A stretch of DNA of 63,720 bases, filler included, from Psammoneis japonica (Eukaryota): NCBI GenBank assembly GCA_008632985.1. It is 3 parts of 3 records of this genome, joined end to end, with 100 filler letters (N's around TTAATTAATTAA, not from the genome) between each part and the next. Parts side by side here need not be neighbours in the genome. Positions count along the whole stretch, not along the records: positions 1 to 22,220 come from QPGO01000441.1; 2 more parts are not named here. The stretch is one strand, 5' to 3'. A program made the position numbers and the translations under genes. Shown piece after piece: positions 1-43,759 of this stretch. Each line of letters starts with the position of its first letter. Positions within the stretch are counted from its first letter, which is position 1. The notes under the pieces are model-generated. The model saw only the letters and a program-made list of their open reading frames with translations, made no database searches and had not been told where the DNA came from.

Positions 1-1229
1 TTGCACTCACTTCGTCAGGCTTGAAGAGAAGGATCGAGGGACTCCCAAGCGCCGAAACAAGACGTCCATCAAGAAAGCAACGGCGAAGAAAACAAAATGA
101 AACGGGCAGTCAGGTTTTTCATAATCAGTTGCACAGAGCGCAATAAAACCATTTTGCAAACCACTGCACAAAACTGTAAGGAGAGACTTAAGACAGCAGC
201 ATTCTAGACGCAGTGACAGCCACCAGCCCATGAGGGCTTTACGACCAATTCAGAACACATCAGTGGCCAATCCTTTAGCAAAATGGCAGACAAGCTGTGC
301 AGCAGAGCTGACAGGCTCAATCTTGATCTCCAAAGCCTCAACCCCAGTGCAAAACCAGTGGCATGGAATGCCGATGGGCTTGGTTCATGGGGACAATTTA
401 GGCATGCAAGCAAGCAGCAGCTTGCACGCACACTGTTGTGCTCCCAAGAATCAGAGAATTTGAGGTGACTTCATGCTGTCATCTTCATCTGCAAGCAGCA
501 ATGACAGTGCAAATGAAGCCATGCCAACAATGGATTTCTTCCTCCCAAAGCAAGCAGGAGAAAAGAGCCCAAGTGTGGTTGGCATTGAGACAGACAGACA
601 AGCCGGCAAAAAAATCAGAGCCAGTCAGTCCTGCTGCCTGTGACATGCTGTCAACGAGTTGTTGCATTGAGTGCTTGTGATGTGTGTGGCTTTCTTTTCA
701 ACTCTGGCAACAAAAAACATGCAACTGCATTTGAAAGAGTGCCAGAAGCAAGAACGCAGTTCTTTGCAGCATGGAAGACAACCACAGTGGGTTGGACAGA
801 CATGGACACTTGGTGCTGCTAGACTCTGCACTTTGGCTCACACCATTGGCTTGAGCACCGCATGGTCCTGGCAGTGTGCAGGGCAATGGGTGAAACAGGT
901 GGATGAGCTTGAGGACCTGGTTGCCTTGCACAAAGATGTGTTGTTTCACCTTGCAATTCTTGCAGGCTGCATGGCACTGCACTCCCTTTGCCTGTGCATC
1001 ATTTTGGCATGAACATCTGAGCCTTTGTCAGCTTTTTTCAGATGCTGCTGACTTTGGATGGAATTTCTTTTTTGCTCAGACAGGAAGAACACATCAGTGG
1101 CAGGCTGCCTCTGGTGCAGAACATCTCTTCACCAAACACAGCAATTTTCTCATTTGGGAAATCTGTGTTGAGAGTTGAGCAAACATTGGCTGTCTCATTG
1201 AGAGAAATGATTTTGACAGATTGTCACAC

Positions 1230-2330
1230 TGCCACAGGTGCCCAGCTTGCAAGGGAAATGAAAAATGTAGAGACAACAGCAGCACTGGGTTGGGCAAACA
1301 AAAGCTCATGCCCTGTGAGCAGCACATCAATGCCACACCACCTTTGCAGGTTTTCTTGACCCACTGACAACTGCTGGAAGGCAAGGCATGCTGTGAAGCT
1401 TGACATCATGGCACTGCAATGACAGGCACATTTTGAGGTTTGTGGAAGACATTTTCAAAGAGAAGCCCAGAAGCATGCAGAAAGCAGTGTTCTGGAGCTT
1501 GGTGATGCAAAAAAAAGCAGCAAATGAGTCTCCTTCAGGGACCACAATTTTGCCTGTTGCAGCTTCCAGGGAGTGTGCGCACTGAAGATGTTGCAACTTG
1601 CTTCAAAAACAAATGCAAAGCAATTGCAGGCATCACAGCAGTGGTTCCACACATTTCCTGATTTTTCAACATCACCATGCATCACCTCTTGACATTTCAT
1701 TGAGAATCAACCAACCGTGGCTCCAAAGCATGTGGTGCTGGGATGGAAATCTAGCAAATGTGCTCTGGGAATGCTGACCATCTTGTTGTGGCAAATGATT
1801 TGACACATTGTTGTGCTGCCATGGGTGGCCAGCTTTCCAGGAAAACAAAACTTGTGAAAATGATGTGGATGCCAGTGGGGTGGGAAATGAAAGCTCACAC
1901 CCTGCATGCAAGCAACATGTCCATGCACAGTTTCTTGCAGGTTTTCTTGACCTGCTGACAACAGCTTGAAGGCTGGACATGCTGTGGAGCTTGGCAGTGT
2001 GATGCTGCCACAACAAACACCTTTTGGCTTTTGCAGAAGTTGTTTCTGAAGTTCAAAGAAGCATGTGAAAGCAACATCCTGGTGTGCTCAGTGTCGTGGG
2101 GAAATTGGCAAATGAATCTCCTTGAAAAAACCCATGACTTTGCCCACTGCAGTTTCTGGTTTGTGCACAGAACATGTTGCATCTCATTCCAAGAACATTC
2201 AAGGCCATTGCAGGTGCCATTGCCTGCCCCTGCATGTTCTGATTTTTCCACATTGCCAGGTGGCACTGCTTGATGTTTCATTGAGAGTCGCCCGACCATG
2301 GCTTCAAAATGTGATGGAACAGAAATCTGA
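1230..2330. repeat. Old tandem duplication, period ~590 bp
   Basis: Shared anchors: ttgcaggttttcttgacc..ctgacaac at ~1344 and ~1935; cctgatttttcaacatcacca at ~1657 vs tctgatttttccacattgcca at ~2238; tttcattgaga at ~1695 and ~2276. Confidence 0.7.
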
Positions 2331-2619
2331 CTCATGTGCTCTGGGAACACATCTCGTGCTGCCACAGAAAGCAAGGATGCCATGGGCTCCAGCCTCTTTG
2401 CTCTGGCTTTGCTTTTTTTTTGGCCCTTTCAGAGACCACCAAAAATGGCAATTGCCATCTCAGATGAAGTGACATGGCAAAAGATCAATTCCACCCTCAA
2501 CACCATTTGCCACACCCTCTGACATCTGGAACAGCACATGGCAAACCCTTTGAATGAATCTTGATTGACTTGCACACATGTTCTTCCAACACAATCCAAA
2601 GAGATGAAAGGCATCAAAG

Positions 2620-3630
2620 GTTGCAGAGCTGAGCAGAAGACCACCCAAAGAATCACAAAGCTGCTGTGGTGAGCAATGAAACATTGAAGAATGTGACTTC
2701 TAAAGCCTCCACTCTGTTCTCACCTGCAAGATCCCTTGCCAAAAAGATTAGAAAGGTTGCTGGATGAAATTGTTGCATGAGAGCAGTGTGCAAAAGCTTC
2801 GATTTGGGCACCCAACTGAAAGACCTGACAAGAGGGGAGCAAAAGGGAAACTCTCAACTTGCAAGAAATCCAAAAACTGGAGGGTTGCACTTCCATGAAG
2901 CTGCATTGGGTTTGAGGATGAAGAACTGTCAAAAAACAGAAACAAGAGACCACCCCAAATCACACAGTTGCTGCAGTGTGAGAAAGACATGAAAGGTCAC
3001 AGAGCTGAGAAACAGACACAGAAGACCACCCAGGATCATAAAGTTGCTGTGGCGCACAATTGAGTGTTGCAGAGTGTGACTTCTAAAGCCTCCATTTTGT
3101 TCTCACCCATGAGATCCCCAGCTAAAAAGATTGGAAAGGTTGCTGGGTGAAATTGTTGCATGAGGAAGGCATGCAGAAGCTTTCAATTTGGGCATCCAAC
3201 TGAACGACCTGAAAGAGGGGAGCAAAAGGGAAACTCTTGACTTGCAAGAAATCCAAAAACTGAAAGGTTGCACTCCCTTGATGCAGCTGTGTTGGGTTTG
3301 ACGATGAAGAGCTGTCAAGAAACAGACACAGGAAACCACCCTGGATGATCACACAGTTGCTGCGGCAAGCAATGAAATGTTGAAGAGCATGCAATGGCCT
3401 TCAAGGCCTCTGCACTGTTCTTGCCTGTAAGATCCCTGGCCAAAAAGATCAGTGGGACAGTTGAGTGAAATTTTTGCATGAGAGTGGTGCATGAAGCTTT
3501 CAATCAGGGTGTCTGACTGGACAACCCAACAAGAGGGGAGCAAAAGGGAACTCTTGACATGCAAAAAACTCAAAACAAAATGATTGGACTCCCGTGATGC
3601 AGCTGCAGTGGGATCAAGGATGAAAAGAGT
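2620..3630. repeat. Three diverged tandem copies, ~320-380 bp
   Basis: Recurrent anchors gtgacttctaaagcctcca (~2693, ~3076) and agaggggagcaaaaggga (~2832, ~3214, ~3532). Confidence 0.8.
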
Positions 3631-3940
3631 GCTTCTTGTGTGGACAGTTGCAGAAAAAGCACAGCACTTGACAGAGCAGATGGACTCCTCCAGTCCATGG
3701 GATGTTGCTGGGTGCCAAGAACACACCACAGAAAATGAGGCACATCACTTGGCCAAGGCCAAAAGGCAAATTGACAGGACCTCACTGGGTGGTCAACTCG
3801 GGACAGCTGATGGGCTGATTGAAGACACTGCAGAAGGCTCCTGAAAAAGCACATCCCTTGGCTTTGCGGACAATCAAGGTAATGGGCATTGCCAGGTGTC
3901 AATTGCAGGACATCTGATCAGCTTGTCAATGGCACCACAG

Positions 3941-5052
3941 AGCTCAAGGTGCAGCCAATGAAAAGGGATTGCAAAAAATGCTGTGTCCAAGTGTGGACAT
4001 TCCCTTGGCTCTCTCTGCAGAAGTGGCTGATGTCAGTGATGGAGTTGGATCGGATTCGGATTTGGCGCAGCAGTCGCAGGACTTGGACTTGCACTCAGTG
4101 CAGCAGCAGGAAAGGTGGAGCAGGTGGGCCAAGCTGATTTGGAAATGAGGAGCAGGGAATGGTGTTGGGTTGCTTGTGTGGCAGGATTGGGCTTGGTGCA
4201 ATGTCGTCAGATCCAACCAATGAACCCTCATCAATCTCAAGGGTTGCTGTGTGGTGCAAGAGAGCTCAAGGTGCAGCCAATGAAAAGGGATTGCTAAAAA
4301 ATGCTACGTCCAAGTGCGGACATTCCCTTGGCTCTCTTTGTCCCAAGCAGAATTGGCCAATGTCAGTGATGGAGTTGGATCGGATTCGGATTCAGCGCAA
4401 CAGTGGGAGCACTTTGATTCGGACTTGGCGCAGTGGTGCAAGAGGCAGAGCAGGTGGGCCAATGGCCGATTCGAAATTGGTGAGCAGGGGATGGTGTCGG
4501 ATTGACTGTGCGGCAGGATCGGGCTTGGCACGCTGTCGTCATGTCCAACCAATGAACCCTCATCAAATTAAGGGTTGCTGTGTGGGACAAGAGAGCTCAA
4601 GGTGCAGCCAACGAAAAGGGATTGCTAAAAAAATGCTACGTCCAAGTGTGGACATTCCCTTGGCTCTCTCTGTCCCAAGCAGAAGTGGCTAATGTCGGTG
4701 ATGGAGTTGGATCGGATTCGGATTCGGCGTAGTAGTGGGAGGACTAGATTCGGACTCGGTACAGCAGTGCAAGAGGTGGAGCAGATGGGCCAAGCCGATT
4801 CGGAATTGGTGAGTAGGGAACGGTGTCGGGTTGTTTGTGTGGCAGGATCGGGCTCAGTACGCTGTTGCCAGATCCAACCAATAAACCCTCATCAAATTAA
4901 GGGTTGCTGTGTGGGACAAGAGAGCTCAAGGTGCAGCCAACGAAAAGGGATTGCTAAAAAAATGCTACGTCCAAGTGTGGACATTCCCTTGGCTCTCTCT
5001 GTCCCAAGCAGAAGTGGCTAATGTCGGTGATGGAGTTGGATCGGATTCGGAT
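3941..5052. repeat. Tandem array of ~330-bp units (3 full + 1 partial, running into an assembly gap)
   Basis: Unit start agctcaaggtgcagccaa(c/t)gaaaagggattgc at ~3941, ~4263, ~4594, ~4923; shared internal ggagttggatcggattcggat. Confidence 0.92.
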
Positions 5053-9700: not shown

Positions 9701-10630
9701 GGCCGATGCGTTTTCTTCTTGGGTGGAGTGGCTGCAGAAGAAAATGTCCTTGTCCGAGTTGAATGGTTGCCAGAGGAAGCGCGGCGAAGGCTTTGATGAT
9801 TCGTGCTATTGACAAGCACCGGGCGGCCTCCAGTGCCCCCTTGCGTCTTGAATCTAGCTGGGCTGGTATCACGCTGATTCACAACACCAGACGCGTCCAA
9901 GACAACGGCACTCCCGGCTTTCGTGTCAGACGATAATCCGTTTGCCTCTAGAGCTCTGCTCGATTCCATAGTATTGCTCGAAGTTTGCTTGGGAGTGACT
10001 GCCGGTCGTATCGTTGACAAAATAATGCCAGGCAGAAGGTGCCTTCGCTATTTCTAAATTCAAAAGAAAGAGATGAAGTCGATGAGAAGAAAGTGTCGTG
10101 ATCGCGCTGGCAACAAAATGAAATGCGTGTCGCTTACCTTGATTTCGTTTTCGAATTTCATTACTGGGCCCTTGAAATGGTTTGAAATCGTTGCAAACTC
10201 GAGTCGTGGTCAGAGCTTTCGTTTCTTCTTCCGACAATCCAATCGGCCTCCTAACCAAGTAGGGTCGTTGAAGTGTCGCATTCCCGAGAATAGGCCCTAG
10301 GCTTTTATCAATCTCCGTCCACGTCAGATATTCTTGGTATTGGATAGTTTCAGCGCGGCCCGTCTCACGCGAGCTTTGGCGGGCGCGGAGGGGCTCTGAA
10401 GACCGTTTCGAGTCGAGCTCTCTTTGGTGATTCCTCACCCCGTTTGAATGATACTTTGGAGCTTTGTTCGCTTCATCAGATAACTTCCGTCGCTTAGACC
10501 AATTCCGATCCTTGTCTCGTTTTCCCCTCCTCCTTTTAGATATGTGCGAATCAAGAGTCAGTTTTTCGTAGAGAGGATTTGCCGACGGCGAATCTTCATC
10601 CGATGATGATGGTGCCGTGAATCTCGGCAT
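6753..10630 (-). CDS. Large multi-exon protein: Ser/Thr/acidic low-complexity body and a C-terminal globular domain resembling a papain-fold (Cys-His-Asp) peptidase
   Basis: Chain of minus-strand ORFs (9926-10774, 9343-10020, 8643-9227, 8066-8665, 6753-8129) with GTAAG donors near 10137, 9359 and 8686. C-terminal domain GYCIPDTSFRIL...GEGVYLVII...KHAVAYFAENGILMD, then a basic tail. Exon model approximate, with at least one frameshift. Confidence 0.5.
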
Positions 10631-11403
10631 ATTCAATTCGAACCGCTTCCAGCAGCTGCACAAGAGTTGGATAAGAAAACGAAGCTTGCATGTGAGAGGG
10701 AGACTTGATAGGGAGAAGTGCGAATGAACACAACAGTGATACAAAGCAATTGTTACCTTTTTCAAGCAGGCCAACGGTTTTTCGCGGCGATTTGGATTTG
10801 GAAAGCCGACGTTTCAAACGACGTCCTTTGATTTTGTTGCTTGACAAAGAGCTTCTCCCAACGTTGCTACAAGCAAGGCACGAGACGTGAGATAATGAAT
10901 AAGGATACAAGACGCAAGGAAAACAAGAAGGGAAGGCGAAAGAGCAACACTCACCGATTGCAGGCAAGTCAACAACGATAACAACAAAGAACGCTATGAG
11001 ACTTGATGTCAATGTTTGATGTTCAGTGCTGTGACTTCGAACTCTAGTTCGCGTGTTGAGTCGTCGTTGCAAATATCAAGTAAACGTACATTTGTCTGAT
11101 GACGTCAGGGGTGACGTAGAAGGCATAAATAAGGCCGGCTATTCAGCAGTTCCTCTCAGCCAGATAGAAGAAGAAGAGAAAAGGAAAAGGAAGGAAAAAA
11201 CATTGATGGTTTGAAAGGGTGCACTGCAGCACCGCAGTGCGCACAGTAATGAAGACGGACGCAGACAGGTGCAGATGCGCTGCGTGGAATTTGGTGCGAA
11301 GTTTCATGCGTTTGCGTGCGCAGAAGGATGTGGAGCGCCAATGGCTGGAATGAAGCAGCACACCACACAGCAGTCAGTGCAGCTCTGTCATCACGGCGCT
11401 AGA

Positions 11404-13034
11404 ATGGCGGAGGACAACATCGTTGCGTCTGGCAAAGCAGAGGATGCAGCAGCTCCGGAAGTCATGGCAGAACTCACGGGCGCCGAAGGCGCGGCGGCAG
11501 CTGCCATGACTGCACTTGGCGCCGAGGGAAGTGCCGAGGGTGTGTCCGTCGAGTCCGAACGCGCAAGGATGTCGGAGAAGCCGGCGCAGTCCCAAACTGA
11601 AAAGAGGGAGAAAGCCGTGCCGCCGGAGCCAACCTTTCAAATTTGTGGTTGGAATGAAGCACAGCAGCTGGGTTGCACCGCCGAGCAGCTCCTTGAGGCC
11701 GGTTGCAAGATCGAGTTGGTGGGTGATCAGGCCACCTTTGTGAAACCGGAGGTCCCACCTTTTTGCAGCGGCAAAAGCGAGGAGGCAGCCAAGCCCGCGG
11801 CCAAAGTGGTCGCGAAAGCAACGGCGGAAGAGGAAGAAGAAGGAAAGCAATTTCCGGACCCCAACGATCCGTCATTCGACTTGTGGGACTGGGTGTTGCG
11901 GCACGAAAAATCCGATAAATTCCAGGAGTCCATGTGCCTGATGAAGGATGCGCCGAATGATCCCGACCTCTGGTTCCCCGCGCTGGGAGAACTGGGGTGC
12001 ATCAGGAGCGACCCTGAAGCCGTCGCGAATGCTCACGGCGAACACTGCAAGTGGGTGTGGAGGTGCCGCACGGAAGTCGGCGAGAGGGGCATCCCAGACT
12101 CGATGCCGAAGAGCAACAAAGTGTTCAAGACCGCCGTCGAGGCTTTCGAAGCGGGGTGGTCGCTCGCACTGGTCCATCTCGTGAAGAGAGCAAGTGCAGA
12201 AGTGTGCACATTTGGATGAGGCGCCGTGTCACTTCAACCTGCGTTGTTTTGCCTCGAAAAGTCCGTTCGCTCCGCAGGCCCCAAGGAGGTGGAGGTGGGC
12301 GAGCTGCGCGCATCGCAACGGAGGGGCGCAGGCATTGGTTTTTTTGCTTTGCGCCAGTTCCAGAAAGGCAGTGCGGTTGGAATCTACGTGGGCCCCAGGG
12401 TGCCCGGTACGACGAGGAGCTGCTCGTGGTACGACCACGACAGCAAGTTTGGAGAAGACCACAGCGTGTGCTGCTCCACCATCCGTGACAGCGAGGGCTG
12501 CACGTCACAGTGGAGCCAAAACCGCTTGATTTTAGCGGTCCAGGGAACAAGAATTCCCATCCACTCTACCTCGGAATGCACTGCGTGAACGATGCCACCG
12601 AGTCGTTCAAGGACAAGAAGAAGATCAAGGCAAGCCAACACGCGGACAACAACTGCGAGTTCTACAACGACGGGTGCTTGGCAGTCACGAAGCGAATCAT
12701 GCCCGGGGAGGAATTTCTCTGCAGATGCAACTTGGACGAATCGGAGAAGAAGAAGAAGAAGAGGAAGGCGACGTCGGGTGCCATGAATCGGAAGAAGAAA
12801 TCGCGTCTACTCCCCAAGTCGGGGGGAGAAGCTCTGCGTCTGGCAAAACGTTTGCCGTGTAGTGTGCTCTGTAAATTAGCAGCACAGTGTGTTGGTGTTT
12901 TTCAGCGAAACTGCAGCATTAGTTGGAAAGGCGTAGCCCCAGTTGTGGTTCGAAAAATGGGAACGAGGAAGAACAGAAAGTCGGTAAATTTGCGCAAATC
13001 TGGTGAATTGGTTGGCACCTGCACAGTCGCCTGA
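11404..13034 (+). pseudogene. SET-domain (histone lysine methyltransferase-like) gene, decayed
   Basis: GAGIGFFALRQFQKGSAVGIYVG (SET motif I). After a frameshift near 12505: LYLGMHCVND (NH-motif equivalent) and KRIMPGEEFLCRCN (GEELxxxY motif, with Cys at the expected Tyr). The upstream 316-aa ORF 11269-12219 contains no Tyr. Probable intron ~12190-12277. Confidence 0.7.
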
Positions 13035-13099
13035 GTACAGAAAGTCAGCAAATTTACGCAAATTTAGCAAGTTATTTTGCACTGTCACAGTCGCCTGAG
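12973..13099. repeat. 64-bp tandem direct repeat between the convergent SET and TET/JBP-like genes
   Basis: acagaaagtcggtaaatttgcgcaaat...cacagtcgcctgag (12973-13035) and acagaaagtcagcaaatttacgcaaat...cacagtcgcctgag (13037-13099). Confidence 0.85.
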
Positions 13100-14517
13100 A
13101 ATGGTCTCTTCCTCTAGAGAAAGGGGGATTGAATTGTTGTTCTTGCCCACTGCAGCACTCTTCAGGCAGAGAGACACGCAGAAGAACTCGTCGTTTGAGT
13201 TTGTCCTGCTGGAGATGCAGTGGCACTTGGTGGGGTTAAAAATGATGACATCACCAAGCCGGAGTGCAACGGAGATGCCTTCGGCAGGGAAGCAGAAGTG
13301 CGCCACAATCCCGTCATTCATGGTGTGGCTGCCGGACGGAGGGACTCCCACCACGGTGACTGCTGACAGGAAGAAGTCCTGGTCCCGATGGGCGTTGAGG
13401 AAGACATTGCGCCCAGCCGCCAGAGAGGAGAAAATGCCATCTGACCGCACCAGGGATTTCCAGTTGTGAAACTTTTTGACACGAGCGACACCCTCAAGGA
13501 TGGCACAGTCCACGCACTCATTGACAAGGTGCTCCATGCGTGAAAGAAGTCTGGTGAGGTGGTGAGTGTGTTGGTCGGCTGTGCCAGGCTGCTTGCAAGA
13601 AATTCGAGCGTCCTCGTGGCAGCCAGGCCAATCGTGGAATGCTTGCTCCTGTCCGTCTCCATGAAGGTAACGCGTTGTTTGCCGCGCACGGTGGACTGGG
13701 CGGTGCAGCATTCTAGTGCTTCGAGCGCTCGGCACTGAGCAACCAGTTCTGCTGGGTTGGGGGAGCTGAACACCACAGCAGAACGCGGCAGCAGGGTGCA
13801 GGTGTTGTCGCAGCGGCAACCGTCCAAGCCAAAGAAAGGCTTCAGATCGAGCACAGGGTCACAGACGACCAGAGGAGCCAATTCGGCAAAGTCAATGTCA
13901 GCAAGACAAGGTGGTGCAGGCTGAGTGTAGTCGCCGTTATAAACTGGAGTGCGGTTGGCTATGCAGTGCATGGAGAGACTCTTAGTGGCACATGGTGCGA
14001 GTGGAATGAGGCGAGCAATCTTGGATGTTTTCCTGCTGGCGCGGCTGCGGATTCGCCTGCGGCTGCGGTGGGCCTTGCGAAGTGGCGGTTGAGCCCTCAA
14101 CACGTTCTCATGTGTCCTGGTGCGCATTGACGATGCGGTGTTCGCAGAGAACGTGTGTGCGAACTTGCCGGCAAATGTTCCGCTGCTTGACACTGTCACT
14201 GTCGTCTCAACAGTGCCCAAAGCAGAACTCTGTCGACAGGGACCGGCGGACTCCAGGGGAGTGGGGTCAAAACCCAATCGAGAGATGTGTCTGCTTTCCG
14301 TTGCCTCAAGAGCACCCAAAGCAAAACTCTGTTGACAGGGACCGGCGGACTCCAGGGGAGTGGGGTCGAAACCCAATCGCGAGAAGCATTTGCTTGTTGT
14401 CGGGCTGCGAGCTGCACGTCCCAAACCCCCACACTGTCGAGACCGGCTGTAACTCGATCGCGACAAGTGCTTGTCGTTGGCAGGACGACGCAGCGAGGCA
14501 CGAGGTAGTTGCGACAT
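13085..14517 (-). pseudogene. TET/JBP-like 2OG-Fe(II) dioxygenase (nucleic-acid base-modifying family), decayed/frameshifted
   Basis: IFSSLAAGRNVFLNAHRDQDFFLS (HxD) ... HFCFPAEGISVALRLGDVIIFNPTKCHCISSR (distal His) ... FFCVSLCLKSAAVGKNNN fits the double-stranded beta-helix layout of TET/JBP proteins. ORFs 13318-14529 and 13085-13819 join by a frameshift near 13605. Confidence 0.72.
14206..14395. repeat. 99-bp (33-codon) in-frame tandem duplication in the N-terminal part of the TET/JBP-like gene
   Basis: SRLGFDPTPLESAGPC occurs twice, 33 aa apart; cccaaagca at 14216 and 14315. Confidence 0.9.
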
Positions 14518-14847
14518 GGTGTGTCTCAATTTGAAATGTGTTTCAAAATGTGATGACGGAAGTGTTGTCGCGTTGTTTTTGTCTCCGCGGAGGGAGGATC
14601 ATCCCACGGCAATCTCAGTGCGAGTTCTCGCGTAGAAGTGCGTTGCGTGCCGTGCCAGCTCGTGCGTTTGAATTACACGGACACACAAGTGCGGCAACGA
14701 TGAGAAGCAGGCTGAGATTCAAAACAAATTTTACCGCCTGAAGGCGTCTTGTCATTTCAACGCGTCTGCACATCTGTTTAAAATGACTTCACACGTCGCT
14801 CCATGCGCAGGTAGAGGCAGCACACCGCGTTTGAAAATTTCGCGCGC

Positions 14848-15404
14848 GTGGAGGGCGCGACGGTAATTTTACGCATTCTGCGCACGTCACAGTTTGGTTT
14901 GGAAATGCGACGTCTGGTCGAACCCGCTGCAAGCAAGGTTGATGTTGCCACAAGGTTGGATGCGATGAACCATCGTTGCAGAAGTGTTGGGGAGTTTTGT
15001 CTTCAAACGGCTCCGGACTCCGCGTTCCAGAGCAGGCGTGTCTCCGGAGACGGAAGCGGATCTTCGCACGGCGGCGAAGTTGGCTTCGCTTTGAGCAGCG
15101 AAGTGTTTTTGAACGAACGCCTTCTTGGCGTGAATCACACCTGCGATGCATCTGTCGACATGGGCGGGGGAGTTGCCGGACCCAGCATCGGGCTCAAGTT
15201 ACTTCGTCGCCGTTGCACCGTGGTGAGCATCGAGGCCGACCACGATCGTCACCAAGAGGCTGTACGTTGGGCTCATCGTGCTGGCCTTCGCTCGAACGGC
15301 GGGTTAGAGTTGATCAACAAGTCATTCTTGGACGAGAGGCTGGCTCCTTTGTGGAAAAAGAAAGGACTCAAGGTGTTCTTCAACAACTGCAACTCCCGCA
15401 TGGT
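14848..15404 (+). pseudogene. DOT1-like class I SAM-dependent methyltransferase fragment (truncated by gap)
   Basis: VDMGGGVAGPS (motif I), VVSIEADHDRHQEA (acidic post-I motif), ELINKSFLD (GDFL-like) and KVFFNN (DOT1-type vfxNN) in the expected order and spacing. Runs into the N gap at 15405. Confidence 0.55.
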
Positions 15405-15851
15405 NNNNNNNNNNNNNNNNNNNNNNNNNNNNNNNNNNNNNNNNNNNNNNNNNNNNNNNNNNNNNNNNNNNNNNNNNNNNNNNNNNNNNNNNNNNNNNNN
15501 NNNNNNNNNNNNNNNNNNNNNNNNNNNNNNNNNNNNNNNNNNNNNNNNNNNNNNNNNNNNNNNNNNNNNNNNNNNNNNNNNNNNNNNNNNNNNNNNNNNN
15601 NNNNNNNNNNNNNNNNNNNNNNNNNNNNNNNNNNNNNNNNNNNNNNNNNNNNNNNNNNNNNNNNNNNNNNNNNNNNNNNNNNNNNNNNNNNNNNNNNNNN
15701 NNNNNNNNNNNNNNNNNNNNNNNNNNNNNNNNNNNNNNNNNNNNNNNNNNNNNNNNNNNNNNNNNNNNNNNNNNNNNNNNNNNNNNNNNNNNNNNNNNNN
15801 NNNNNNNNNNNNNNNNNNNNNNNNNNNNNNNNNNNNNNNNNNNNNNNNNNN

Positions 15852-18790
15852 GCTCCATCAAAGAGACAGCCACAATTGGAGGGTCTGACCCAGGCAACAC
15901 CTCATGTTGGTCATGTTGAATTTGTCCAAGAGGAGGAAGGCACAGAGACAACAAACTTGAAAACAGCTGTTGCAATGCTCACCATGCAAAGCAAGATGAT
16001 TTGTCACCTCTGCCAGAAGATGGAAATGCTGCAGAGGGAGGCAAAATGCCGGTGGCTCTTGTTTGAAGGCTGTCACAGCAGAAAAAAGATGAGGAAACAA
16101 ACCTTGCAACAAACAAACACTCTGCAAGCAAAAACACTGTTGAACAGTGCCCAGACCTCATGAGGAATTTTGCTCTCATGCATGCATGAGAACCCAAGAA
16201 ACTTGCCTCCAAAAAGCATCCCATGATCTGTTGCAAGAAGCGTGCTTGTCTGGTCTTCTGTGAATTGCAGACCTCCAGCAGAGTCAATCCAGCATCCAAA
16301 GACAAGCTCAGCTCCAGCACTGTGGATCTGAGATCATCTGCATGTTGGAAATCCAAACAAAGTCCATTGCTTTTGCTCATGTTTGTGAAGGCCTCATTGC
16401 TGCTGCAGCACTTGTTTGCTCAAAAACTCTTGAATGGCCAGACTTCAGCACAGCTGTTGCAGCACTGCTTTGACATGAAACAACAAAGCAAGAAGTTGAG
16501 TTGATCAAGAGCCATTTTGTGGCAATGACGTGCATGCACAACAGCTGATGTTTGGTGCAAGGTGCCTGTGAGATGCTGTTTGATGATCTTGGATTTCTTA
16601 GAAGCAAGGTGCTGAGGCTGCTGATGGTGGCACAAAATGACCAAGATGTTCTAAGTCAGATGTTTGCTCCCACACCATGTGGCTGTCAGCAAACAAAGTG
16701 CAAAGTGAAAGAGTTGAGAAAATGCTCAGTTTGAACAAAACAAAGTTGCCATCTCATTCAAGCTCCTGGCTTTCAACAGAAGACATCAAAGACAAGTTGC
16801 TGGAAGACCAACTAACATCGATGTGCTGCCAGTTTTCTGTTGCAAAATTTGAAAGCTTCCCCCAGTTCTTGGTGGCCTTTGTTCATGTTGGAGCTCTCAT
16901 CTGTTTTGTGTGATGAAGAGAACAGACAATTGGTGAGTTCACGCAAGACAGCCTGCCAGCAGCAAGCAATGTGGGAGCTTTTTTTGCACATGATGAGCCA
17001 AACTTACAATGGAAGAAAAGAGCTTGTGCAAAGTGCAACCTGACAAAGGTGGCAAACACATCAAATGCAAAATTTGAAAATGGTTTTTGAATGGCTGAAA
17101 ATTGCAACAGCCTTGAGTTTCTTTGACTCAAATGCTTTGCACTTGAGGACAGTGCAGCTGGTGACAGCATTTTTGATTTTGGCTCGGGCAGTGCTGGGAG
17201 CACTCTTGAGAATGCAAAGTTGTGGAAAGCCACAGGTGCAATGAAAGAGAAACAGCTTTCAATGGTGGGGCTTTCATTTGAACTTGTGTGTGACTTGGTG
17301 ATTGTGCCACTGGACAACCCTGGGTTTGAGAGCTGTGCCATGGTTGTGCTGGCCAAGACTGAGTGAAAGAGCAGTTGACCAAAACACACTGCAGCTCTTT
17401 GTCATGTGGCACCCATCATTGCTGGTTGCTGGGGTGGAGGCCCCCATTTTTTGTGATTGGAGCACTGACAGCCAAAGTGAGTGCTTTGTGCACTGCACAT
17501 TTTTTCTGTGGCACTGGCAATGGGAGACATTGTTTGTTTGTCAGAGCTTGTCAGCTGGTGCAAAATTTGTGGCCAGCTGAAGAGCAATGAGTTTCTTCTG
17601 TCACATTTCTTCCAGACCATTGATCCTTTTGCAAGAGCTGATTTTCCCATTTCCCATTTGTTCCACGTGCAGGTGGGCTTTGTCACAAATAATTTTTGCT
17701 CCCAATCAAGCACAAATGGGTCACAACAAAGCTGAGTGATCCTGGCAAAATCCAACCAAAGCCAAACCACAACTGGCGCTGCCCTGTTGACAAATGTTTC
17801 ACCACACAGTTTCATGGACATCAGCAAACTGGAGCCCACAATTGGGAAAGTGAGCTCACCCTGCCCAGGGCTGCAAATTTGTTTAAAGTCCACAAATGTC
17901 CCAGGGCTCCATTGACTCAAAAGTGTCATTGCTCAACAACGCGCTCAACACCTCATGAGTTCAGTCAATTTCCAGAATGTGTTTGCCATCTGCAGACCCA
18001 ATGATGCAAAGACCCTTTTGCCGTGTGAGTTTTCACTGTTTGCAAACAGCTCCTGAAATGAGATGATGAAGAACTCCTGGGTTCTCTGCAATGCACCTGG
18101 TCCCACTGAGTGCTTGCAAACAAGGGCGGGGGTTGGGCAAAGGAAAAAACTCAACAGCGCCCCTTTGGCCAGTCATTTGGAAATCATGTTGAAGCCCTGC
18201 CAGTGCAGGGCCCCAGACATGCCATCCATCAAAGGGATGAGTTGTGAGAGACTGAGTGTTTTGTCATGTGCAGCGCTGTCTGTTTCAAACCTGGAAGCCC
18301 CCCATTGCCTTTCTTGTGCTTCTTTGCTGAGGCCAGAGAAGTTGATCTAAGGACACACCCTCATTGTTGCAACAAGCAGCACAGGAGAGCTGAGGCATGA
18401 AACAGCACATCAACAGGAACAAGCAGAGCTCACACTGGCACTGTGCACCATTTTAGTTGGATGATGCAGATGGCGACATGACCTTCCATGCAGCAACAAT
18501 GGAAGCATCATGCATGCCACCCGTGCAATAAAAAGCGAAGTCGAAAACGCAATGAAATGTGCAGCAGCACTGCAAAATGCTGGCCCTTTTAATCAAAACT
18601 GCAAAGCCACGGATAACACAAACAAAGCACGATAACCTAAAAGGAAGATGCTGCAGTGCGAAAATACTTTCTTGTCACATTCTAATTGCAGATTAAAAGA
18701 TGTGACACATTCCACAAAACCAAAGAGAATTCTCCAGGCCTCGTCACTGACACGTGCGACGCCAAAGCGTCAAACCTCCACAAACCTAGG
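15852..18790. mobile_element. Heavily degenerate region depleted in TpA and CpG (probable transposon relic)
   Basis: Same composition as 200-5052. No intact ORF. Composition returns to normal near 18800. Confidence 0.5.
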
Positions 18791-18952
18791 ACATTCCTCT
18801 TGAGTTAGAGAGTGACATCGAAACACTCTGCACCGCTCCATATAACGGTCCTTTGTGTAACAATGGGCGTCATAGCACTTTTCAAAAGTACAAGTATAGC
18901 AAAAGGAGCCTTGTCAGGTCTCACACAATCGACAACGAAAGAGATGAAATGG

Positions 18953-19348: not shown

Positions 19349-19584
19349 TGTCAAACCAGTTTGTTGAAGCAAATACGATACACGAAGCTCGGAAGGGTAG
19401 CTACCGTAGCACAAGTAAGCAAGAGTGTAGGTCGGTCAGCCCAACAATACACTTGCGTTATTTTGCAAGAGGATGATTTTGTGACCGTGTTTTCGATCGA
19501 TGACTCTCCTCTATGTCTTTCAGGACTAAAGATTTAAGCCCCAAAGCTTCAACGCAGAGGGAAATGACTCGATGTAGAAGTACC

Positions 19585-19695
19585 GTACTGTAGCTGGCAT
19601 CTAATTTTGTGCCCTCTACTATACTCTCTCTAGCTAGCTACTCTACTCTAGCTACTACTATTAGAGAGCTCTACTACTAGTAGAGAGAGCTCTAG

Positions 19696-19729
<34 letters not shown>

Positions 19730-19803
19730 CAGTATAGAGAGAGAGCTCTACTCTAGACTAGGTTACACTAGACTTAATTTTTTTAGCTAGCCCTCTAGAG
19801 AGT
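19585..19803. repeat. TAG/CTA/AGAG low-complexity intergenic tract with (AG)n core
   Basis: ctctctctagctagctactctactctagctactacta...tagagagagctctagagtagagagagag. Similar tracts at 6631-6664, 21935-22220, 36420-36452 and 43760-43865. Confidence 0.85.
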
Positions 19804-20335
19804 CTGTGAGATTGAAAGCAATCCGGTAGCACAAGCTGCAGGCCAATCCACGCGTCTATCACAACCAAACTTTTCGATAACATCAAGCATAAATTTCACT
19901 TTTTTCTTTTTTTTGGTACGGCGAAGCATCCACAACAATGAGAATAGTGTAACGCGAAGAAATTAAAGAAAATTGAAAATCTTGACCATCACCACACCAT
20001 TAGTCTGCGAATCGATCCTATGCCAACGCGAAAGTTCAAATGGGATTTGCAAAAAGTTTGATTGAAAACTAGATGAAGATAAAGTGCAAAATAAGTTTGT
20101 TGACGTTGGTTGACTTGCCGTCATGTGATACCATCTTAGCGCGTAGCAATACCGATGATTATTACTGTTTCTTATCTTTCACTTGTACTATTAAGAATTA
20201 AGAAAGGGACATAAGATGTTACCATGCAACAAGAATTAAAAGCATTTCTAGATAGATGTATCTCGCTACATAACCTATATCCTTTCCTATTTCCACCCGA
20301 GACTGTACAACCCGACACTCAACCGCTCTACTTGT

Positions 20336-21717
20336 TTAGAATCCAAAGTCACCATCATCAAACCCATACTCGGAATCGTCGGCAGAGTCGTCATCGCCAT
20401 CGGAGTCACTGTCGTCATGATCCAAATTAGCCGCCTCTTCAAAGTTGTTCAATTCAACAAAGTCTACCTTCCATCGTAAGATGCCGCCAATGCCACCAAA
20501 ACCCTTTACGAATTGCGTGCCTTCTCCACTACGGTCGGTGACAAACTCCAAGTTGCAACCAAAGTTCTTGTAGTTGTTCGCGAACCATTCCACAAGGGAT
20601 TCCTCTTCGACAACCTCCAATTCAACTCCCGTTTCAGGGTCACGGAAAAACGATTCGTTTTGTTCCTGCTCCTTGGTTAGGTGAACCACCTTGTCTTCGC
20701 CGGTGGATGTGTTCCTCAAAACATACCGAGTCACTGCGAGGCTGTCATAGATGATGAGGTCTTCGACTGCACCCAACTCAAGCGCCTTGAGTGTGTCATC
20801 CACCATGAAACAGTACTTGCCCGTGTCTTGAGAGATTTCGTCCATGTATCTCTGGAGCAGCTTCTTTTCCTTCATGAGCTTGACGCTGCTCAAGGTATCA
20901 GCAGCCAACTCAATGGCTTGGTTAAAGCCGTGCTCACCACCATAAGATACGTCCACCATTTTGAGTACAATCTTGGACAGACGCTGGTCAAAGAGATCGG
21001 AACGCATGAGTTCCGCCTTGAAATCGGCGGATCCCGCCAATACCAAGCCTTGCACATTTGGACGCTGTCCGTCCGTAACAAAAAGCTGCGTCGCCAACTC
21101 TGCCACTTTTCGGACATAGTTGTGTCGCTTCTCTAGACGGAGACGAGCAAAACGCAAGGCAGACTGCCCACCACGTCCGTGCTTCTTTGGCAAGTCTACA
21201 CTAAACTTGTGCAGAATCTCGCGATTCGAGCCCTGAACCGTTCCGTAGAGAGTACCATTACCGTCCATGACGATGAACCCAAAGGCTTCGTCGTCCATCA
21301 ACAATTCATTCAGATCTTCGGTATGGAACTTGTTATCGCATAAGTAGAGCGACGTGTTGATGGGCTTAAAGGGCTCAAAGTCAATGTTGACGCGGCGTTC
21401 CTTTCCGTCGTCTGTAATCACGGTCCCGCAATAAATCACCAATCCGTTCTTCGGGCACTTGGAGTACAGCTTCAGACGCTGCTGCGTACTGGTGATGGCA
21501 CCCAACACACTCAAACGATTTACACGACTCTTGATGTTACTAGCTGTACCGTATTCGTCTGAAAGCATCTTGTTCACGCGGCTAATTTGATCTCCGGGAG
21601 GAATAATGAGAGAAATCATCGACGTGCCGTTTCCTCGGGCTTCCTGCAGTTTCTTGATTAATTTTTAACCTTGAAGATTTCAATTTGTTGATCCGTATCA
21701 TCTTTGTTGTTCGACAT
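20336..21717 (-). CDS. eRF1: Eukaryotic peptide chain release factor 1
   Basis: TASNIKS, YLCDNKF and [14 protein letters not shown] motifs; acidic C-tail; intronless. The N-terminus [18 protein letters not shown] joins the main ORF only if one A is added to the A-run near 21662-21666. Confidence 0.97.
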
Positions 21718-21934: not shown

Positions 21935-22220
21935 CTACTCCTCTACCTGTAGTCTCTCTGTGGAGAGTAGCTCTCTAGCTAGAGTAGAGAGTACTGTAGC
22001 TACTTAGATCTCTAGAGTATAGTAGCTAGAGTCGTATAGCAGAGTAGAGAGTAGAGAATAGAGTACAGTCGTTTAGACTGGACTCTCTCTAGCTAGAGTT
22101 GTAGTAGTAGACGTATAACACAGCGGGCAAAGGCCCAACAGAGCGAGCTCGAGAAAAAATGGATGCAACCGGCACCTCAAATTCACTCTACCGTCTAAGA
22201 TCTAGTCTCCTCTGTCTCTC
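21935..22220. repeat. TAG/CTA/AGAG low-complexity tract upstream of eRF1
   Basis: tggagagtagctctctagctagagtagagagtactgtagctacttagatctctagagtatagtagctagag... Confidence 0.8.
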
Positions 22221-22320
22221 NNNNNNNNNNNNNNNNNNNNNNNNNNNNNNNNNNNNNNNNNNNNTTAATTAATTAANNNNNNNNNNNNNNNNNNNNNNNN
22301 NNNNNNNNNNNNNNNNNNNN
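22221..22320. other. Artificial 100-nt contig spacer (N44-TTAATTAATTAA-N44)
   Basis: Six-frame-stop linker centred in Ns; identical structure at 44111-44210. Confidence 0.95.
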
Positions 22321-36869: not shown

Positions 36870-38383
36870 ATGAAGCGTTTTAGTTGGTGCATCTTACTTG
36901 CGATCCTTGTGAATACCAAAGGAAGGATTCCTATCTATGTGAAGGGGCAAGCACAGTCCGAGTCTAGTAGGAAGGAGGTACGTGTAACATATAAACGAGG
37001 ATGAGACTCGCTCAGTGGAAGATCGTTTCTAAGCTAATACCTACTGTTTTTGGGTTCCCCCAGGATAGCAACTTTTTTCGACGTGATTTATTGGAAAACT
37101 GTGTCGATGATCCGCCAGGCTTCTATGATGCCGGAGGACGTCTTTTCGACTGTGCTTGGTATGCGGAGGGAAACCGATGCAGCTACTTTGGGCATTTGAA
37201 CGAAAATAACGGACGTACCGCGAATGACGCATGCTGTGTGTGCAACGGTGGGATCACCAAGACTTCACTGCCGACTTTGTCACCAATCCAGTCTCAAACG
37301 CTCGAGCCTACCATGCATCCTACATTTCCACCAACGCTACCTTCGCCGTTCTACCTTCCGACACTGTATCCCACCGCAGGGCCAACCAAACCCGACATTA
37401 CACAAAGTCCGTCAACGAAACCTGCTGATTTTACCTCATCGCCTTCCACCCAACCGTCACAACAACAAGGCCAAAACAAGACTATTATTAGCTTCTTTGG
37501 GCTAGCCGATAGTCCCTACAGCGTGGACGAGCGGTTCTGCTTGAACATGGCATTGCGTGATCTCGATCTTGCCGCTGCTGACGCCTCCCATGTTATTCAC
37601 CTTGGTGACATTAAGAACCGGCAGTCGGCATGCAATGAAGAAGCTTACAATGATATTGCAGAAATATTTATACACCCTTCCAACGCAATCAACTACGACC
37701 CTCGTGATTGCTTCTTTGTGCCGGGAGACAACGAATGGCATGATTGTACAAACGCTTCCGAAGCTTGGGATCGTTGGACAAGGAACTTTGGTATCAACAA
37801 CCCGTATGGTTTTGGCACTCTTTCAGATGGTGAAACAGTCGTCACACGTCAGACGGGTGTGTTACGAGAGCCAGGTGTAGATCGCAGCGAGAACTTTGCC
37901 TTTTTCAAAAACCAAGTTCTTTTCATAGGGCTAAACATGGTCGGCTCCAAAGAACTGATCGGCGATGAGTCAATTCGACTGGCTCAAAATTTTGAATTTG
38001 TAAGAGATCAGCTTGAGGTGTACTCCAACGGAACCTTTGGAATGAAAGCGGCTGTTGTGTTTGGTCATGCAAGTATCGGAAACTTCCGTGCCCAGTATTA
38101 CGGCCAACCCTTCAAGACGTTGTTGAGACAAAAGTATCGAAATCTTTCAGTATTACATCTACATGGAGACGGACACGTATATAACAAGGGTAATCCTGAT
38201 CCGCATAACCTCAACTTGGTGCAAGTTCAGCTCGATTCTGGGAGAAAGGCTCCTCCGGTGTTGGTTTCAGTGATTGAAAAACGTGATGGGAGCCACGAGT
38301 TTCAGATAGATAGGAGGCAAGGTCGATTTGATGGCTTCTGTCCAATGGGAGACAAGGAGAAAACTTGGCTCGCTCCTATGTAG
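36870..38383 (+). CDS. Secreted calcineurin-like metallophosphoesterase with a Cys-rich module and Pro/Thr/Ser stalk
   Basis: Signal-like MKRFSWCILLAILVN; intron 36978-37063; CAWY..C...TANDACCVCNGG module; PT repeats; GLADSPY, HLGDIK, VPGDNEW, VFGH and HLHGDGH metal-binding motifs. Confidence 0.85.
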
Positions 38384-38648
38384 GTGCCCCCAAGCGTAAT
38401 CAAGGACCTCGGTCATCTCGGGCAGATAGGTATCTCGTCGTGGACGAGTTTGTTTGGCCTAGTGCAACCGGTATTTTTTAAAATTGAAAATTTGACGTCG
38501 GGCGTTGAGAGCATACAACAAATCCAAAAGGATGTAATAATACATTGACTGCATTATGAAATATTACATATATGTTCATTCTAAAGAACATTAGTTGCCG
38601 ACCGTTGAGATAGCACAGAAATCAATCAGACGTCCAAAAGGCCACAAA

Positions 38649-39911: not shown

Positions 39912-40085
39912 CTTCCAACCTGTTCAAACGGAAATGCGCGCGTCAACTACCCTTTATTCGTACGACTGCATTTTAACTATATAATATCCATTTTCTCAAA
40001 AGTAGCGCGTTGTGGATTACCAGAGACTGCCGTTGGATGTACTTACGTATTTAAACCATCTTTTGTTTGCTTTTTGTGTGTCTAG

Positions 40086-41082: not shown

Positions 41083-41765
41083 CATTGCATGCTACACAAA
41101 TTGCACCAAGGATGCTGTTTCATGCACAGTTGCATTTTACAATGCATGAACGGAGGGAAGAAGAGGGGGGGATCAGATTTTTGAGACCAAGCAAATTCAA
41201 ATTTTGTGGTCAAATGTTTTATACATGGGCACATACAAAATTATCACTGAATGCAAGTTGTTTGTGCATGAAAATCCCCAATGGATTCAATCATCTCACT
41301 GTTGCAAACATTGAGCTAAAATGTTCACATGAACCCCAATGAATGGAGGATGCATGTGAGATGGTGGACTCAGGGTAAAACATTTTTGGAAATTTCCATG
41401 CCTCAAAAAAAGAGGTGACGTACGACGACTGTGGATGCTGTTCAAGAACAGTGTGATGTGAGGAGGTGTGCCTCCCACTTGCTGATGCTGATGTGGTCAG
41501 AAGCGATGAGACTGAGGAAGGAAGAGACTCCTCGAAATCACGAACCGTTGAATTTCAAATTTTGATTTATATTTGTACGGAACGCTGAAGAAAGATATTA
41601 CACGTACACTCGTTGTAGCATTCCACGTACTTTTGTGTCGTCACTTTTTGCGCCTGCCGTTGAGACATTTTCAACGCTCTGTGTGCGGTGAGTTCACTAC
41701 CATAGTCCCTAAAAAGGGCTTTCCAAGTTTATGTGCTAATTATAAGCTAACCAAACTAGGAGAAG

Positions 41766-43596: not shown

Positions 43597-43759
43597 TGTT
43601 TCGATTGTGTCTCCCGTTTAGTAAGCGCTGCAGAGCGATCACCCGATTTGTAGTCCAGGTGTACTTCCCATCCTCTAGAGGGTAGTATTTTGCTCTAGAT
43701 GGGGTCGGTTCGTTTGCGCGTTAAGAACCAAGGCAGTCGTACTTGTAATCGCAACTCCT

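Follow-up and report, generated by a model that had tools for sequence, protein, structure and literature searches.

At a probability that we put at about 0.75, the stretch at 11170–12300 represents the left end of a block that extends at least as far as 15404 and was subject to locus-confined hypermutation at TpA, a process separable from CpG decay. Within the window (the whole stretch of DNA that was analysed, 63,720 nucleotides including filler), the change has a defined direction, affects both strands symmetrically, is confined by sharp edges and is independent of CpG decay. The features are collected in Table 1.

Table 1. Features of the window, with positions counted along the whole stretch (o/e, observed/expected; both-lost, depleted in TA and CG)
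Feature	Position	Strand	Remarks
Both-lost block	246–4290		
Tandem array, copies c1–c4	3939–5052		~322 bp per copy; spans the edge of the both-lost block; runs into gap at 5053
Left edge of TpA-poor block	11166–11201		GA-rich polypurine tract; drop in TA density
Nearly TA-free, CG-normal stretch	11170–12300		TA 3, CG 89; TG o/e 1.42, CA o/e 1.20
TpA-poor, CpG-normal block	11200–15404		HMM state 1; TA o/e 0.20, CG o/e 0.96
ORF, ATG to stop, 314 aa	11275–12219	+	No Tyr; coding-like codon-position composition
SET/PR-like relic in two frames	12220–13031 (12220–12588 and 12489–13031)	+	Weak, lead only
257-codon ORF, candidate TET/JBP-like dioxygenase relic	13088–13858	-	Tyr 0.4%, Cys 5.1%, His 6.2%
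Assembly gap closing the TpA-poor block	15405–15851		
Both-lost block	15852–18518		TA o/e 0.04, CG o/e 0.10, TG/CA 1.74–1.90
Small composite	40621–41497		TpA-poor 40621–41067 beside both-lost 41068–41497
Both-lost block	44211–49456		TA o/e 0.05, CG o/e 0.13
TpA-poor, CpG-normal block	49457–60614		TA o/e 0.26, CG o/e 1.01
Bacterial-type tandem-95 repeat (Big_9/cadherin-like) gene	51898–60745	+	285-bp units, 22 or more; several frameshifts
Further TpA-poor stretch at window end	62415–63719		
ORF in this stretch	62553–63293	-	Tyr 0.4%, Cys 7.7%, His 4.9%

In 11281–12300, where the GC content is 0.593, TA occurs twice (o/e 0.05) and CG 84 times (o/e 0.96), exactly as an earlier note on this DNA had it, with two TA amid abundant CG. 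The TA sites are crowded up to 11165 and then appear only at 11247, 11400, 11916 and 12385, leaving TA-free gaps of 516 and 469 bp between the last three, and the counts fall from 26 in 10452–11165 to 3 in 11166–12384; the sharp boundary that the note had placed at about 11170 is therefore real, with the abrupt drop after 11165. TA is under-represented throughout the window, with an o/e of 0.54–0.60 in normal sequence. Nevertheless, unaffected sequence sampled in 507 overlapping 1020-bp windows has at least 24 TA in each (median 37), and the 17 of these with a GC content of at least 0.53 contain at least 26, with an o/e of at least 0.46, so that the depletion goes far beyond that of GC-matched sequence. 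Unaffected sequence has 1286 gaps between TA sites, the longest of which measures 171 bp. Extrapolation of the TA o/e to a GC content of 0.593 gives 15.3 expected TA in 11281–12300, and the Poisson probability of two or fewer is 3e-5. A self-BLAST found no paralogue of 11170–15404 within the window, and nothing convincing in the way of terminal repeats was found around 10900–18800. Since 11170–12300 has neither a paralogue nor a homologue, mutation in place at this stretch itself would follow by analogy with the other blocks of the window.

The window was segmented using a seeded HMM and an HMM with random starts, both of which converged on one solution with a normal state (TA 4.0%, CG 5.7%, TG+CA 13.9%), a TpA-poor state (TA 1.25%, CG 6.8%, TG+CA 17.5%) and a both-lost state (TA 0.37%, CG 0.67%, TG+CA 22.8%). 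The BIC was 93782 for one state, 92328 for two, 91992 for three and 91887 for four, and was worse for five; the sole addition of the four-state model is a small AT-rich state. The three states proposed in the earlier note were thus recovered from random starts, with segment limits within about 100 bp, and the block holding 11170–12300 was delimited as 11200–15529. No state combining low CG with normal TA emerged from the HMM solutions for the window: all four both-lost blocks are also depleted in TA, and each touches a TpA-poor segment on one side, in the case of 15852–18518 across the assembly gap. The CG o/e is bimodal, lying at about 1.0 or about 0.1. The block at 11200–15404 is uneven, with near-zero TA at 11166–12385, 13237–13668, 13983–14450 and 14870–15200 and with 18 TA retained over about 730 bp at 12385–13115; residual TpA amounts to 41 sites in 11170–15404 and 158 in 49700–60700.

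TA, CG, TG and CA together make up 0.236 of normal and 0.239 of both-lost sequence; with this sum constant, the gain of TG and CA equals the loss of TA and CG. No block shows a strand skew of TG versus CA (values from -0.08 to +0.05), and the depletion is strongest in ATA/TAT contexts and weakest in GTAC. Internal repeats of 246–4290 differ chiefly by TG-versus-CA double mismatches, and self-BLAST found no similarity among the three both-lost blocks. A Pfam scan of 62 ORFs from the both-lost blocks and two other stretches gave nothing at the curated cut-off (best E 0.003, 17.4 bits versus a cut-off of 24.3), and the ORF lengths in 15852–18518 are not above chance.

The direction of change can be read from the tandem array that crosses the edge of the first both-lost block, in which copy c1 has lost TA and CG, c2 has lost most of its TA, and c3 and c4 retain both. 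At all ten aligned TA of c3, copy c1 has TG (six) or CA (four), with no change in reverse, and 12 of 15 CG have become TG or CA, with one in reverse, against a background mismatch of 17 in 240 sites. A duplicate in normal sequence, taken as a control, gives similar counts in the two directions (TA 15 versus 12, CG 18 versus 18). Copy c2 has lost 8 of 10 TA versus 5 of 15 CG, and TA loss is hence more complete than CG loss where both act on one array.

The TpA-poor block at 49457–60614 provides a second case, as it contains a gene for a tandem-95 repeat protein (NF012211; Pfam Big_9, Cadherin_4, Cadherin_5) that scores above the curated cut-off of NF012211 (966.3 bits versus 90, with 14 stretches in one ORF) and matches Big_9 at 892.8 bits. 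Among its best 120 homologues every one with a named organism is bacterial, and no PDB homologue of the repeats was found at E 1e-3. In the 22 units, codon column 60 is TAC in ten, CAC in six and TGC or TGT in six, so that Tyr is replaced in 12 of 22, whereas in 1930 repeat domains of the 120 bacterial homologues the same column is Tyr in 1703 and Phe in 195, and never His or Cys (Fisher p about 1e-25). At column 74, 18 units have Tyr, two have His and two have Cys (4 of 22 replaced), compared with Tyr 1751, His 0 and Cys 5 in the bacterial repeats. The suggestion in the earlier note that Tyr had given way to Cys and His is in principle borne out by these units. The four columns with a consensus TA hold only mixtures of TA, TG and CA, plus three other cells, and some TA survive, as at codon column 34, where seven of the 22 units have CTA. 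The transition fractions at A and T within TpA are 0.295 and 0.227, compared with 0.078 and 0.098 for A and T elsewhere, indicating that TpA sites change about three times faster than other A/T sites; CpG shows no excess (0.146 and 0.051 versus 0.090 and 0.085). The loss of TA in this gene postdates the amplification of the repeats.

The ORF at 11275–12219 is probably a mutated relic gene. Read from stop to stop it extends over 11215–12216 (334 codons), with the first ATG at 11275; the complete lack of Tyr reported previously is correct and both quoted peptides, with Cys and His at putative Tyr-like positions, are present, the length from the ATG being 314 rather than 316 residues. It contains 13 Cys and 10 His and is devoid of ATA, GTA, CTA and TTA codons. 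At the three codon junctions, TA is observed 0, 0 and 3 times versus 15.1, 13.2 and 10.7 expected, and the lack of Tyr is an arithmetic consequence of the lack of TA. Tyr amounts to 2.5% in housekeeping ORFs, which would give about eight here, and Cys plus His exceed the housekeeping expectation by about 11 residues. The six frames of the region contain 2 TAA, 2 TAG and 25 TGA. No homologue of the 11215–12216 ORF was found by a word-index search, and there was no match by exhaustive phmmer with a query that continued past the TGA into the following ORF or by Pfam with 11275–12219. For the candidate ORFs at 12220–13031, there was no Pfam match at E ≤ 10, the best PDB matches were PR/SET proteins at E values of only 0.49 and 0.92, and the C-terminal piece matched nothing in the PDB; a SET/PR domain is therefore not assigned, given the lack of a significant profile or structure match.

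In the mechanism that we propose, A:T would be converted to G:C at TpA on either strand, turning TA into TG or CA with CpG untouched, which would erase Tyr codons, NTA codons and the stops TAA and TAG. The product at 11170–12300 would be a Tyr-free, Cys/His-enriched relic ORF together with several overlapping chance ORFs, and the same process would have acted on the bacterial-type tandem-95 gene at 49.5–60.6 kb. A second, separable process, most likely the deamination of 5-methylcytosine and hence presumably methylation-dependent, would convert CpG to TpG or CpA in a subset of the blocks only. The blocks of this subset are depleted in TA too and hold no recognisable genes, and their pyrimidine–purine steps would end up nearly all TG/CA. 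The agent of the first process may be an adenine deaminase that acts on DNA and is directed to foreign or silenced sequence, as suggested by a preprint on Bigelowiella natans (10.64898/2026.01.13.699255), which names an ADAT2-like candidate.

This preprint describes how giant-virus and virophage DNA integrated in the genome is hypermutated at TpA, with a de novo mutation rate raised about 1000-fold in mutation-accumulation lines. Of the 231 de novo mutations that it reports for two such viral regions, 230 are A to G or T to C, all of these on TpA. As in B. natans, TA changes here only to TG and CA, on both strands and within confined regions: A:T to G:C changes at TpA giving TpG or CpA are seen in the array (10 of 10) and in the tandem-95 columns, both strands are affected in the skew values and in c1, and confinement with unaffected neighbours is seen in the HMM segments and at the edge at 11165/11166. 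TpA-poor clusters occur genome-wide in B. natans, and the long-term TpA-poor, CpA+TpG-rich clusters are enriched in unannotated and foreign-type genes; according to the abstract the pattern also occurs in sequences derived from non-eukaryotes. Among the targets here, a foreign origin is supported for the bacterial-type gene at 49.5–60.6 kb; the 11275–12219 ORF has no homologue, and only weak SET/PR and TET/JBP leads lie nearby. The normal state here (0.0403 and 0.1386) coincides with the CDS-wide means of B. natans (TpA 0.041, CpA+TpG 0.137). When the cut-offs of the preprint (Rho TpA ≤ 0.43, Rho CpA+TpG ≥ 1.52) were applied to 1-kb windows, with a pooled Rho formula that is our interpretation of the one in the preprint, 12 of 12 both-lost, 1 of 17 TpA-only and 0 of 31 normal windows passed. 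A term search of the main text of the preprint gave no occurrence of CpG, 5mC or Tyr, and a literature search on cytosine methylation in Bigelowiella found nothing.

The loss of CG resembles the 5mC-driven decay of transposons and endogenous viral DNA, for example in Amoebidium (PMC11244446), in the change of CG to TG/CA (12 of 15 sites in c1), in the silent gene-less blocks and in a CG o/e of about 0.1 (0.10–0.13 in three blocks), and differs in that it always accompanies near-total TA loss. Fungal RIP (PMC2621366) likewise disables repeated or foreign DNA in place by context-specific transitions; however, it changes C:G to T:A mostly at CpA and makes TpA, whereas here TpA is destroyed, in single-copy sequence as well, and a TA o/e of 0.04–0.26 in the affected blocks, being the opposite direction, rules it out. 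Editing by ADAR, which the preprint describes as favouring U 5' of the edited A, or by APOBEC shares deamination as a defence. In contrast, the change here is symmetric between strands, follows a gradient across the copies of a chromosomal tandem array and also occurs in a bacterial-type gene, which suggests that the substrate was DNA at the locus and not an RNA intermediate; retrocopies of ADAR-hyperedited RNA are ruled out by the symmetry and the gradient.

The earlier note had proposed two separable processes, and this is upheld by TA o/e values of 0.05–0.26 at a CG o/e of about 1.0 and by the lack of CpG hypermutability in the tandem-95 gene. Its further proposal that TpA loss is earlier or faster fares less well, since the bimodal CG o/e fits separate targeting, with the TpA process aimed at a wider set of sequences, at least as well as it fits a time series. 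It is improbable, although not negligibly so, that one deaminase of dual specificity, acting on A in TpA and on C in CpG with a strong preference for TpA, caused both losses, with the TpA-only blocks young or lightly hit and the both-lost blocks old or heavily hit. Such an enzyme would account for the concurrent TA loss in all four both-lost blocks, the missing CG-only state, the adjoining TpA-poor segments and the lead of TA over CG in the array, and ADAT2-type enzymes are reported to be active on A and C in DNA (cited in 10.64898/2026.01.13.699255). However, it would be expected neither to leave CG o/e bimodal and CpG stable in the tandem-95 gene nor to remove about 95% of the expected TA from 11170–12300 with zero loss of CG, and the hypermutable regions of the preprint, with all but one of their mutations at TpA, also argue against it.

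Less probable still is a modification of T, in which a TET/JBP-type oxidation at TpA would yield a 5-hydroxymethyluracil-like base whose mispairing gives T to C, read as TA to CA on one strand and TA to TG on the other. Because TA is its own reverse complement, this would leave the same pattern as A to G, and the pattern observed is symmetric. The block itself may hold a TET/JBP-like relic, the 13088–13858 ORF, for which 22 of 30 Atlas feature matches belong to a single set; in the clusters of this set, 19% of the members have PF12851. This lead is itself a mutated ORF, as its Tyr content shows, with nothing found in Pfam, PDB or sequence searches and with a single-sequence AlphaFold model that is unusable (pLDDT 32.5). 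That no special mutation is involved, the block being an ordinary GC-rich gene or natively low-TA foreign DNA shaped by codon usage or by UpA selection in RNA, is very improbable, because, even though TA is low everywhere in the window and the ORF has coding-like periodicity and exceeds the length obtained in 97.7% of dinucleotide-preserving shuffles, GC-matched sequence has far more TA, Tyr is absent from 334 codons and the lack of TA extends to every frame and both strands, which produces overlapping ORFs, and for the tandem-95 gene it is already largely refuted by loss after amplification, with frameshifts, at a Tyr (column 60) that is never His or Cys in the 1930 bacterial repeats.

Locus-confined TpA hypermutation may form part of a broader scheme, which we offer as a speculation that is on balance unlikely: a nested two-tier mutational defence against foreign DNA, or alternatively a single dual-specificity deaminase. 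The first tier would be a TpA-directed editor acting on all DNA recognised as foreign, including bacterial-type genes that still have long ORFs, and the second would be CpG destruction in a core subset, with the TpA domain extending 300–500 bp beyond the CpG-loss core and with an 'ash' containing almost no TA or CG as the end product. In either case, published screens in which strong CpA+TpG enrichment is a requirement would fail to separate the tiers and would miss most targets of the first.

In conclusion, the first report of TpA-specific hypermutation of foreign DNA dates from 2026 and concerns a single alga, B. natans (10.64898/2026.01.13.699255); this study adds a target gene of bacterial type, a preference for flanking bases and a protein-level read-out, in which a conserved Tyr becomes only His or Cys and which dates the process after repeat amplification. 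The clean separation of TpA loss from CpG loss would change how genomes are screened for such regions, and, if the source is not B. natans, the window would represent a second lineage with the TpA process.

The stretch between 11170 and 12300 forms the left end of a block (11200–15404) that is poor in TpA but normal in CpG. The count in the earlier note of two TA dinucleotides amid abundant CG in 11281–12300 proved exact (TA observed/expected, o/e, 0.05; 84 CG, o/e 0.96; GC content 0.593), and the sharp boundary that it placed near 11170 was confirmed: up to 11165 successive TA lie a few tens of bases apart, and beyond this position TA occurs only at 11247, 11400, 11916 and 12385. The resulting TA-free gaps of 516 and 469 bp compare with a longest gap of 171 bp in unaffected sequence, where each of 507 overlapping 1020-bp windows holds at least 24 TA and the 17 with a GC content of at least 0.53 hold at least 26. 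When TA o/e is extrapolated to a GC content of 0.593, the probability of two or fewer TA in 11281–12300 is 3e-5. Together, the GC-rich windows, the gap lengths and this probability argue against a TpA o/e no lower than that of GC-matched genes, an outcome that the earlier note had named as refuting its claim. The TpA-poor block also contains two tandem duplications, 96 nt twice at 14201–14395 (86% identity) and 64 nt twice at 12970–13097 (77% identity), the latter retaining several TA.

A hidden Markov model (HMM) on four symbols (TA, CG, TG/CA and other) gave an identical solution from seeded and random starts and recovered the three states and the segment list that had been proposed by eye: a normal state (TA 4.0%, CG 5.7%, TG+CA 13.9%), a TpA-poor or TpA-only state (1.25%, 6.8% and 17.5%) and a state in which both are lost (0.37%, 0.67% and 22.8%). 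The BIC improved with each added state up to K = 3 (93782, 92328 and 91992) and was worse at K = 5, while K = 4 merely added a small AT-rich intergenic state. This separate state comprises short, very TA-rich, CG-poor intergenic patches at 19501–20300, 21951–22300 and 43651–44200, in which TA makes up about 14% of dinucleotides. No state with low CG and normal TA appeared in the HMM of the window. Normal and both-lost sequence have nearly equal sums of TA, CG, TG and CA (0.236 and 0.239); the losses of TA and CG are therefore the gains of TG and CA.

The window is eukaryotic nuclear genome sequence with housekeeping genes and seven assembly gaps; its features are collected in the table. The two ORFs in the 1.1-kb duplication (36995–38380 and 38595–39350) matched no Pfam family. 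A weak match to a helicase-associated (HA) domain (E 0.017) at 40055–40474 (+) lies directly left of a small composite of TpA-poor and both-lost sequence.

Features of the window and the basis of their assignment
Feature	Position	Strand	Basis or remark
SET/PR-like relic (weak lead), frameshift-split	12220–13031	+	PR/SET proteins as the top two PDB matches, E 0.49 and 0.92
Possible TET/JBP-like relic, Tyr-poor, Cys/His-rich ORF	13088–13858	minus	Atlas features
eRF1	20339–21664	minus	
Acetyl-CoA carboxylase	about 22.4–30.0 kb		
MutS/MSH6-type gene	31.5–34.7 kb		
1.1-kb direct duplication in normal sequence, 81% identity	37271–38369 and 38805–39894		Control for substitution spectrum
Bacterial-type tandem-95 repeat gene (Big_9/cadherin-like)	51898–60745	+	NF012211, Pfam Big_9

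The direction of change can be read from a tandem array, each copy about 322 bp long, that spans the right edge of the both-lost block 246–4290. One copy (c3, 4583–4905) retains TA and CG. In the copy within the block (c1, 3939–4260) all ten aligned TA are changed, six to TG and four to CA, as are 12 of 15 CG, and 17 of 240 other sites differ; in the middle copy (c2) eight of ten TA are changed and just five of 15 CG. Reverse cases were absent for TA in both comparisons with c3 and numbered one (c1) and three (c2) for CG, while the control duplication is symmetric (TA 15 versus 12, CG 18 versus 18). Among repeats within 246–4290, no other adjacent double mismatch is nearly as frequent as TG opposite CA (8/16, 31/79, 13/38 and 12/28, compared with 5/48 in the control), an excess that is expected if each copy independently resolved one ancestral TA or CG.

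Most of the TpA-poor block 49457–60614 is occupied by the tandem-95 gene, which is very large and lies on a eukaryotic scaffold with housekeeping genes nearby. The gene matches NF012211 with 966 bits (cut-off 90) and Pfam Big_9 with 893 bits; its best 120 homologues are 33–56% identical, and every one with a named organism is bacterial. It was probably acquired horizontally. It is also probably decaying, because its reading frame is broken by several frameshifts (near 54050 and within 57900–58250), provided that these do not stem from faulty assembly. Twenty-two of its 285-bp units (it has at least 22) were aligned. At the four columns with consensus TA the units read TG 10, CA 6, TA 5 and GA 1; TA 10, CA 6 and TG 6; TA 18, CA 2 and TG 2; and TG 8, TA 6, CA 6 and TT 2. 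The fraction of cells with a transition is 0.295 at the A and 0.227 at the T of TpA, compared with 0.078 and 0.098 for A and T elsewhere, with no such excess at CpG (0.146 and 0.051 versus 0.090 and 0.085). TA per unit tends downward towards the 3' end.

The suggestion that Tyr had been replaced by Cys or His, made in the earlier note for another ORF, finds its support in this gene. Codon column 60 reads TAC in ten units, CAC in six and TGC or TGT in six, whereas the same column in 1930 repeat domains from all 120 bacterial homologues holds 1703 Tyr, 195 Phe and neither His nor Cys (Fisher p about 1e-25). Column 74 has 18 Tyr, two His and two Cys, compared with 1751 Tyr, no His and five Cys in the bacterial domains.

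The ORF for which the replacement was proposed (11215–12216; 334 codons from stop to stop, 314 residues from the first ATG) lacks Tyr and the codons ATA, GTA, CTA and TTA because TA has been lost. The six frames of the region together contain two TAA, two TAG and 25 TGA stops, and long ORFs therefore overlap on both strands. Dinucleotide-preserving shuffles gave a longest ORF of 215 ± 47 codons, with 334 reached by 2.3% of 300, and 45% of first codon positions are G; the ORF was therefore probably once a gene. A word-index search of 5.8 billion proteins found no homologue, Pfam gave no match, and the ORF extended past its TGA to 12588 had no hits in an exhaustive phmmer search of 1.84 billion representatives. 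It has 23 Cys and His residues versus about 12 expected from housekeeping ORFs, an excess near the roughly eight Tyr expected, which is consistent with Tyr conversion but not decisive. In the neighbouring SET/PR-like relic, Cys stands at what we take to be sites of conserved SET-domain Tyr. For the TET/JBP-like ORF, 22 of 30 Atlas feature hits fall in one set, and its language-model features are nearest to clusters that partly carry Tet_JBP (PF12851); Pfam, PDB and sequence searches gave no match, and a single-sequence model (pLDDT 32.5) was unusable.

TpA loss is thus a real, directional and locally bounded process, separable from CpG loss as the earlier note had held, and the more complete of the two where both act. 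Two processes with overlapping targets are the favoured reading, since about 95% of the expected TA but none of the CG is gone from 11170–12300, the CG o/e values of the blocks fall into two modes, and CpG in the tandem-95 gene is not hypermutable. Less probably, a single agent of dual specificity lies behind both losses: TA is also lost in all four both-lost blocks, each of which is placed between a TpA-poor segment and normal sequence, and at two edges TA loss extends 300–500 bp beyond CG loss. The same three observations that favour two processes count against it. Action through an RNA copy is disfavoured, as the balance of TG and CA in every block and the gradient along the chromosomal tandem array speak for a process acting on the DNA of the locus itself. 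In the both-lost blocks ORFs do not exceed chance expectation and none of the Pfam matches attains its curated cut-off, whereas gene-like ORFs are still present in TpA-only blocks. Any roles of methylation and chromatin are ones that we infer. Across all TpA-poor and both-lost blocks, the most depleted TA have a 5' A or 3' T flank (0.05–0.23 of normal density), led by ATAT, ATAC, ATAA and ATAG, and the least depleted contexts are GTAC, CTAA and GTAA (0.44–0.64), a bias which may mean that the target extends beyond the dinucleotide or that some motifs are protected.

A TpA-targeted process is already in print, in one preprint on one species, Bigelowiella natans (10.64898/2026.01.13.699255). Its mutation-accumulation lines carried 302 nuclear point mutations, of which 231 lay within two integrated viral regions; 230 of these 231 were A to G or T to C, all on TpA; 324 low-TpA coding sequences (CDS) and 124 clusters of TpA-poor, CpA+TpG-rich 1-kb windows were reported, and an ADAT2-like DNA adenine deaminase was proposed as the agent. 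CpG, 5mC and Tyr are absent from its main text. Averaged over the CDS of that species, TpA is 0.041 and CpA+TpG 0.137, the same as in the normal state here. With its cut-offs, and the pooled Rho formula as we read it, 12 of 12 both-lost, one of 17 TpA-only and none of 31 normal 1-kb windows pass; on this window the cut-offs thus mainly detect blocks whose TG/CA excess is owed more to CpG than to TpA loss, and miss blocks such as 11170–12300. The additions made here are the separation from CpG decay, the read-out as Tyr to His or Cys, a bacterial-type target and the flanking preference.
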